DNA of 40,006 nt from a virus. Lineage: Duplodnaviria > Heunggongvirae > Uroviricota > Caudoviricetes. The translations under genes and the position numbers were made by a program. The stretch covers positions 1-40,006 of IMG/VR virus record IMGVR_UViG_2568526473_000002; one strand, given 5' to 3'. Below are positions 38,593-40,006 of this stretch, in pieces. Position 1 is the first letter of the stretch, and the number at the start of each line of letters is the position of its first letter. The notes under the pieces are model-generated. The model was not told where the DNA came from. It saw only the letters and a list, made by a program, of their open reading frames with translations, and did not search any database.

Positions 38593-39256
38593 ATCTGGAA
38601 ATTACAACGGAGGAGGAAAGATTGTTGCTAGAGGCATGGAAGTATCGGGTGCTGCTGAACAGTGTAGACACTTCCGTTACGCCAGATATCGAGTGGCTTA
38701 TTCAACCATAATAAACAGTATGTATATCATAGGTTATTAATTGTGAGTTTTTTCGGTGTGTTATTTGTTGGTTTGATGTTATGCTTTTGCGCCCCAAAAA
38801 GTTGTTTAGATGTATTTTATCAATTGATTTTCAATATCGTTTAATAAAGAAAAGTTAAGCAATCCGGATGTTGGTTTTTTGTTAATTGAATGGTTCTAAT
38901 AATGTTTTGTTACTGTTGTTGAATGTGACTTGATAAGAAATGCAAGTAAAAATGATACTCTTTTTATTTTAAATTCAAACGGTTGACATATATATAGCAA
39001 GAGGTTTCAGGTGCGTTGTAGTGAGTTTATGTTAATAAAAAGAATAGTAAGCGTTGAAAAATGTAACTTTGAAATACGTTAGAATAAAAAATAATATACA
39101 TATAATAATTTAATCTTAAATGAAATTTATTAAAATTTGCAAACTATAATTTTGTGTATAAAAATATAAATGCACATCATCCTGATTATGATTGTGTATT
39201 TAATTGGTTGTTATTTGACTATTATCAACTTGTTTTAATTTTATGATAGGTGCAAG

Positions 39257-40006
39257 ATGGATTATGTTTGCTCCGTAGTTTTCATCTGTCAATCATTTGA
39301 TTTAATTATAAACAGGAGAGTTATCTCGTTCAAAAAAAATTCATTGTTTATTGTAAGCGACAAAATTAGAAGGGAGTTACCAGTATGCCCCTCTAAACTA
39401 AGAATTGTTGATATAGATAAGAAAACATGTTTATCCTTTTTTATCGACGTGAATAATGAGCTGCCTGGCAAATTTACTCTTGATAAGAATGGCTATATTG
39501 CTGAAGAGGAACCTCCATTATCGCTTGTTTTTTCTCTGTTTGAAGGGATTAAAATAGCAGACTCACACTCCCTTTGGTTAAAAGAACGACTATGTATATC
39601 CTTACTTGCCATGTTCAAAAAACGCGAAAGTGTAAATTCATTTATACTAACAAATATAAATACATTTACCTGTAAAATTACTGGAATAATCAGTTTTAAT
39701 ATTGAGCGGCAATGGCATTTAAAAGATATTGCGGAATTGATTTATACGAGTGAAAGTTTAATAAAAAAAAGATTAAGGGATGAAGGAACGTCATTTACTG
39801 AAATATTGAGAGACACTAGGATGAGGTATGCAAAAAAACTCATAACTTCAAACTCTTATTCTATCAATGTTGTAGCCCAGAAATGTGGCTATAACAGTAC
39901 TTCATATTTCATATGTGCATTTAAAGATTATTATGGTGTCACGCCATCTCATTATTTTGAGAAAATAATCGGCGTCACAGATGGAATAAACAAAACAATT
40001 GACTGA
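39257..40006 (+). CDS. appY: AraC-family transcriptional regulator, AppY-like (249 aa)
   Basis: C-terminal AraC-type HTH region (…[39 protein letters not shown]…[23 protein letters not shown]); sequence matches E. coli AppY as recalled; sits in very AT-rich DNA. Confidence 0.8.

Follow-up and report, generated by a model that had tools for sequence, protein, structure and literature searches.

A probable DLP12-type right arm carrying appY behind an apparent recombination scar in a roughly 40-kb prophage

The window, that is, the whole 40,006-nucleotide stretch of viral DNA that was analysed, opens on an integrase gene and closes on the stop codon of a transcription regulator gene (Table 1). 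The parts at its right-hand end can be read as a 5' invertase remnant of 35 codons (pin'), a 3' remnant comprising the last 50 codons of a tail-fibre assembly gene (tfa'), a 545-bp regulatory region of 25% GC and appY, beyond which ompT and the attachment site attR would follow. The preliminary description of this junction had correctly recognised the invertase stub, the AT-rich DNA and the regulator, but it overlooked the tfa' stub, inside which its own starting point (38593) falls.

Table 1. Features of the window discussed in the text, in order of position
Feature	Position	Strand	Remarks
intD-type tyrosine integrase	1-1164	-	Pfam Phage_integrase, 160 bits; window begins at its stop codon
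Excisionase-like ORF	1044-1421	-	upstream of int
Inverse autotransporter, intimin/invasin-type	9622-13176	+	1,184 aa; IAT_beta 338 bits plus Big_1/Invasin_D3 repeats
BD-FAE/alpha-beta hydrolase	13213-14256	-	347 aa; convergent with the inverse autotransporter
Left pix-type crossover site	36525-36552	.	inverted repeat I2; reverse complement CTTCTCCCAAACCAAGGTTT
Right pix-type crossover site	38371-38398	.	CTTCTCCCAAACCAACGTTTATGAAAAT; partner of 36525-36552; just upstream of pin'
pin', pinE-type serine DNA invertase, 5' remnant	38452-38558	+	35 codons + 2 nt of about 184 codons
tfa', lambda-type tail-fibre assembly gene, 3' remnant	38559-38711	+	153 nt, last 50 codons + stop; counterpart of K-12 tfaX
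appY upstream regulatory region	38712-39256	+	545 bp without ORFs; 25.0% GC
appY	39257-40006	+	249 aa, AraC/XylS-family transcriptional activator; stop codon ends on the last base of the window

The short open reading frame at 38452 begins MLIGYVRVSTNDQ and matches the Pfam Resolvase profile over positions 2-37 of 145 (24.9 bits). In strain A22 pinE is intact, its 555 nt encoding 184 aa; the nucleotide alignment of pin' with this gene holds to about 38556-38558 and is lost beyond, from where the reading frame runs out of frame into the tfa' stub for 11 more codons until a stop at 38590-38592. A full Din-family invertase (Pin/Gin/Cin/Hin) possesses a catalytic and a C-terminal DNA-binding domain in about 184-197 aa, of which pin' retains residues 1-35. 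The truncation that the preliminary description had noticed is thus borne out by the A22 gene, and pin' is evidently a remnant and not a functional serine invertase. Its homologue in strain 2012C-4221 is called 'recombinase family protein, missing C-terminus' in the PGAP annotation.

Upstream of pin' two intact pix-type crossover sites in inverted orientation flank a 1.8-kb invertible segment of tail-fibre and tfa genes whose own invertase is dead. The pair shares a 20-nt core with 95% complementarity (38371-38390 against the repeat of the left site), and CTTCTCCCAAACCAAGGTTT at 36525-36552 is taken by us to resemble the crossover sites of the Din family. Judging from this anatomy, the fibre segment can no longer flip and would be frozen unless the Pin of another prophage acts in trans. 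The same layout (fibre - tfa / tfa' - fibre' / pin) is found in the pinE cassette of strain A22 and in those annotated as pinE/tfaE in many other E. coli prophages; presumably it is also the layout of e14 in K-12. Window positions 37300-38546 are up to 99% identical to cassettes with an intact pinE, such as that of A22, and the window has the inverted repeats of the crossover sites. The difference lies in what follows: in A22-type cassettes an intact pin (184 aa) is succeeded by other cargo, whereas in the window pin breaks off at codon 35 and runs directly into the right arm of DLP12.

The tfa' stub, which lacks a start codon context, matches the Pfam profile Caudo_TAP at positions 80-130 of 131 (62 bits), while a full-length chaperone of this family spans about 130-200 aa and the whole profile; in 2012C-4221 the homologue is marked as missing its N-terminus (PGAP). 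It shares about 85% identity with K-12 tfaX and about 80% with K-12 tfaD and lambda tfa, in keeping with a conserved tfa 3' end that is common to many phages at 80-87% identity. Compared to K-12 tfaX the stub has one lysine codon fewer, and an internal stop codon is present only in the K-12 gene. When the tfa' allele alone was searched by megablast, the only match was strain 2012C-4221, and a more sensitive search for a donor of the allele returned nothing closer than 86.9%. The sole Rfam match, IS009 (RF02111) on window positions 38480-38677, scores 73 bits, below the gathering score of 117. An RNA element at tfa' was rejected on the grounds that the match stems from homology with tfa genes in their 3' coding portion: the full-score match (227.8 bits) is the 3' coding part of K-12 tfaD (positions 17857-18055 of the K-12 extract L004). 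The IS009 family itself appears to be tfa coding sequence and not an independent RNA gene. In K-12 the ybcY methyltransferase pseudogene lies between two directly repeated tfa 3' modules, one at the end of tfaD and one in tfaX (17934-18078 and 18981-19125 of the same extract), and the window tfa' matches them at about 80% and 85%, respectively.

Taken as a whole, window positions 38559-40006 are 97.6% identical to tfaX-appY of K-12, and the differences are unevenly distributed. The 38 differences are made up of 35 substitutions and a gap of 3 nt; the gap and 21 of the substitutions fall within 38559-38681, and the remaining 14 substitutions are scattered over the 1,325 nt past 38681, the first of them at 38770. 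This clustering points to a second boundary within 38682-38769, somewhere in which K-12-like DNA of about 99% identity starts, with 38559-38681 constituting a divergent allele; from about 38685 onwards the arm and K-12 share 98.9% identity. This second boundary is most simply read as the product of a homologous exchange close to the conserved 3' end of tfa.

Downstream of tfa' the base composition changes abruptly. The GC content amounts to 50.7% in positions 1-38451, 41% in pin', 46% in tfa', 25.0% in the spacer between tfa' and appY and 31.9% in appY itself. Elsewhere in the window the lowest value for any 545-bp segment is 34.5% (mean 50.8%, standard deviation 5.8%), and the low GC content of the spacer is far outside chance. 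The preliminary description had placed an abrupt AT-rich shift directly after the invertase; the shift is real and abrupt (25.0% versus 50.7% GC) but its position is different, since the maximum-likelihood estimate of a single-change-point scan is 38698; the ten best-scoring positions span 38697-38710, where the tfa' stub ends, about 140 bp past the point where the invertase is truncated. A/T tracts of at least 4 nt occur at 34.9 per kb in the appY leader compared to 10.0 per kb in the prophage (3.5-fold), and TpA steps are 2.8-fold denser.

The spacer differs from K-12 by 11 substitutions in 545 nt (98% identity). Published PCR primers for the appY 'promoter island' (PMC7054387) map to 38932-38960 and 39347-39374 with 2 mismatches each, all at engineered restriction sites, and the fragment that they bound (38932-39374) comprises part of the spacer and the first 118 nt of appY and contains only 5 of the differences between the window and K-12. 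The reported start points of appY at -114 and -25 correspond to about 39143 and 39232. A simple sigma-70 consensus scan detected 9 sites compared to 8.5 +/- 3.0 in dinucleotide shuffles, the published island definition being built on another predictor, PlatProm; as far as this simple scan can tell, the result suggests that the 'island' property is compositional here. The high-affinity H-NS motif is present at 2 sites in the 545 bp, a modestly higher count. In K-12 the promoter-island fragment of appY has been studied by H-NS gel-shift (PMC7054387), and according to the part of that paper which cites Atlung 1996 and Purtov 2014, H-NS is a strong inhibitor of appY, DpiA a further inhibitor and ArcA an activator. 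H-NS silencing is thus reported for K-12, and with a promoter region of 98% identity it may well extend to 38712-39256 in the strain from which the window derives.

The protein encoded at the end of the window is identical to E. coli K-12 AppY (b0564) in all 249 residues, and the two genes differ by 3 nucleotides, all of them synonymous. The C-terminal part harbours the double helix-turn-helix DNA-binding fold of the AraC type, matched by the Pfam profiles HTH_18 on residues 159-235 (59.4 bits, cut-off 33.6) and HTH_AraC on residues 198-233 (44.6 bits). No AppY-specific model in NCBIfam was matched; the best models were GadX and YdeO at about 103 bits, far below their cut-offs, and the identification therefore rests on the direct comparison with K-12 and on synteny. 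The gene is annotated as appY in all matching genomes, and the neighbourhood of the AppY orthologue, tfaX'-appY-ompT-attR-envY, is represented by its upstream part in the window and by its downstream part in 2012C-4221, K-12, MS6198 and MSI001. By exact identity, then, this open reading frame can be identified as AppY, which is how the preliminary description had read the AraC-family regulator. The AppY of 2012C-4221 (positions 5825-6574 of the extract L003) carries the changes G79D, I183V and I237V relative to the window and K-12 proteins, despite 99.7% identity of the flanking DNA. AppY, in K-12 an AraC/XylS regulator encoded by DLP12, is induced when cells grow anaerobically, starve or enter stationary phase, and it acts as a direct activator of gadE, nhaR and gadY (PMC10057817); further targets given in the literature are the hya and app operons (PMC7054387; PMC11228462), and appY expression depends strongly on SspA (PMC11228462).

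At the opposite end, positions 1-1259 of the window are 99.2% identical to K-12 intD-xisD, which together with the tfaX-appY alignment confirms the earlier placement of the region at the end of DLP12. From about 1259 K-12 has a deletion that runs into exoD; the window continues past that point, and the int-xis end may therefore be intact. The attachment core is a perfect 47-bp direct repeat, CTTCTAAGTCGTGGGCCGCAGGTTCGAATCCTGCAGGGCGCGCCATT, which corresponds to the 3' part of the argU tRNA gene. In K-12 the two copies lie at 564755-564801 (argU) and 586057-586103 (between ompT and envY), in agreement with the annotation of that record, 'cryptic prophage DLP12 564755..586056'. Strain 2012C-4221 also has both copies: its attR follows 1,626 bp after the counterpart of window position 40006 and its argU lies 15 bp beyond the integrase, which puts attL about 15 bp before window position 1 and thus outside the window. 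No exact match of at least 8 nt to the argU core was found in 38400-40006, and across the whole window there was no 45-mer match with 18 or fewer mismatches, the longest exact word elsewhere being 10 nt or shorter. The last base of the window completes the appY stop codon, and it is from the sequences of relatives that ompT and attR are known. To count unoccupied sites, an artificial junction of argU and the DNA after attR (argU/envY) served as the query and was scored as present if matched over at least 80%. It was matched in 2,532 of 5,426 complete E. coli genomes, nearly half, and all of the full-length matches that were sampled were in a single piece, at up to 100% identity.

The relatives differ in what is attached to this arm. 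K-12 DLP12 encodes the identical AppY behind an upstream region of 98% identity that includes the mapped promoter-island fragment, likewise has a tfaX-type stub upstream of appY, shares the integrase end (99.2%) and occupies the argU site as do the other relatives. The K-12 prophage body is heavily decayed with lambda-type remnants, and ybcY'-tfaX precedes appY, whereas the window element is a full-length prophage of roughly 40 kb in which a contractile-tail module and the pin stub abut the arm. The closest relative is the prophage at argU in 2012C-4221 (NZ_CP027437.1), annotated with sheath, tube and baseplate genes. It is 99.7% identical over 38400-40006 and 99.0% identical over 31258-40006, which covers the tail module, and differs by mosaic blocks with no or poor match at window positions 5170-6057, 9361-14521 and 28977-31257, as well as by D79, V183 and V237 in AppY, where the window has G, I and I. 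This element sits between argU and ompT-envY, and the synteny argU-intD...tfa'-appY-ompT-envY is also that of K-12. Just beyond attR, the envY gene of 2012C-4221 is split by IS100, an IS21-family element (positions 1389-4109 of the extract L003).

The temperate phages Kati (PP925833.1) and PhiR68_2 (PV340576.1) possess a ybcY-tfaX-appY-ompT arm of 98.6-98.8% identity. Both have lambda-type J-lom-stf-tfa tails, with ynaE and ybcY between tfa and tfaX, and an intact PinQ/PinR-type invertase on the opposite strand. Kati also shares the int-xis end (98.7% over window positions 1-1401) and has the 47-bp core between ompT and int. In MSI001 and MS6198 it is lambda-type J-lom-stf tails that adjoin this arm, and the tfa stubs measure 138 and 111 nt. 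Altogether no fewer than four unrelated prophage bodies meet the arm, each at a point of its own, and these joints all fall within the final 50 codons of a tfa remnant. These different tail modules on one appY arm across lineages indicate that the arm is constant and the prophage body varies. The arrangement tfaX'-appY is present in about 828 complete genomes and the K-12 order ybcY-tfaX-appY in about 550; the ybcY-tfaX block as such is found in over 4,400 complete E. coli genomes, for the most part not beside appY.

Very probably, the region is the cargo segment in the right arm of a lambdoid prophage of the DLP12 family that is inserted in the argU tRNA gene, with an apparent scar joint at its left and, presumably, K-12-like regulation of appY. 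We propose that an illegitimate recombination or deletion grafted an e14/Mu-type contractile-tail module with its invertible fibre cassette onto the conserved right arm of DLP12 and that the same event destroyed the invertase, and that a second, homologous exchange within 38682-38769 would have linked the divergent tfa' allele to the K-12-like arm. The order and the mechanism of these two recombination events are what we infer from the present arrangement; no intermediate genome with an intact pin followed by the full tfa-appY segment was found. The joint itself lies at 38558/38559 with an ambiguity of at most 2 nt, the two stubs being in different frames, and is spanned by the 24-mer GGGTAAAATGAGAGTGAGCATATT. 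In base-by-base alignments no similarity between the window and K-12 was found upstream of 38559, and none between the window and pinE downstream of about 38558; neither of the two pix-type crossover sites is located at the joint. Because the joint is free of homology it looks like the scar of an illegitimate recombination or deletion, which favours the deletion or recombination origin that had been suggested for the truncated invertase. Among the 5,426 complete genomes the joint occurs in one, that of 2012C-4221. A site-specific hotspot at 38559, where the homology to K-12 and many tfa matches start, was rejected as trivial, since the tfa sequence of the window begins there. K-12 tfaX retains tfa-family similarity about 12 nt further upstream than the equivalent of 38559.

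The alternatives concern the origin of the joint and the extent of the element. Din-type invertases occasionally use pseudo-sites, and with such an enzyme and its crossover sites present beside the joint, this habit has to be counted in favour of an origin in which the invertase itself made the joint by aberrant site-specific recombination at a secondary crossover site. The breakpoint, however, falls inside the invertase coding sequence, at codon 35-36 and about 160 bp from the right pix site, the pix sequence TTCTCCCAAACCAAGGTTT is unlike either side of 38558/38559, and a pix-like 26-bp half-site over 38546-38571 is absent from the intact pinE and tfa genes, all of which makes an invertase-made joint most improbable. 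Scarcely better are the prospects of an explanation that dispenses with an illegitimate event and derives the whole junction from ordinary homologous recombination between the tfa genes of two phages. Tail-fibre genes are exchanged among unrelated phages and tfa 3' ends act as recombination joints, which speaks for such an exchange, as do the 80-87% identity of the tfa 3' end in many phages and the clear mosaic boundary within 38682-38769. Yet a tfa-tfa exchange explains that boundary and not the left joint, upstream of which lies invertase sequence in a different frame and without tfa similarity, and we regard it as very unlikely to account for the junction as a whole.

The least credible of the alternatives is that appY and its AT-rich leader form a separate chromosomal island adjacent to the prophage, in which case attR would have to lie at the tfa stub or upstream of it. 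It draws on the composition break at about 38698, which coincides with the end of the recognisable phage structural genes, and on the different prophage bodies (those of K-12, MS6198, MSI001 and the window) that abut the same arm. Against it stand the absence of the argU core from 38400-40006 and from the rest of the window, its only second copy lying beyond ompT, the empty-site genomes, which lack the whole block from int to ompT, and the genome of phage Kati, in which appY-ompT adjoins attP-int; core position, empty sites and Kati have already refuted a separate island. With attR between ompT and envY, appY lies inside the element, and appY and ompT are best described as cargo between the tail-fibre genes and attP of an att-bounded prophage, the part downstream of appY by the sequence of relatives. 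The preliminary description had staked its reading on an attR beyond, and not inside, the region, and this is where the second core copy is found, past ompT in the relatives. In position, between tail-fibre genes and attP, the appY cargo segment presumably matches the b region of lambda.

If the cargo segment is regulated as the literature describes for K-12, H-NS would bind the AT-rich tract and silence it, with DpiA as an additional repressor; ArcA and sigma-S would take part in lifting the silencing under anaerobiosis, during starvation and in stationary phase, whereupon AppY would activate the host operons hya, appCBA, gadE, nhaR and gadY. For E. coli, the gene appY, its AT-rich, H-NS-silenced leader and its place in DLP12 are all well documented; what is new is limited to the rare pin'/tfa' scar and a full-length contractile-tail prophage that carries the DLP12 cargo arm. 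Beyond bookkeeping the region matters little, the modest additions being that appY and ompT lie inside an att-bounded element and occur in deposited phages. The joint is rare, with one occurrence among 5,426 complete genomes, and might be used to mark a lineage. Rather doubtful is the idea that the window element is not a cryptic DLP12 but a complete and still inducible hybrid phage, with a DLP12/Kati-type int-xis, attP and appY-ompT arm and an e14/Mu-type contractile tail that replaces the lambda-type one. If this were true, appY and ompT could move between E. coli strains in a virion of another morphotype and host range, and the tfa 3' stub would represent a reusable joint for swapping whole tail modules onto a fixed cargo arm.

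The left half of the window may contain further cargo. The block 9361-14521, which has no blastn match to K-12 DLP12 or to 2012C-4221, lies roughly where those elements carry emrE and ybcK, and includes the convergent genes for the inverse autotransporter and the hydrolase (Table 1). The inverse autotransporter is possibly an adhesin cargo gene of the prophage.
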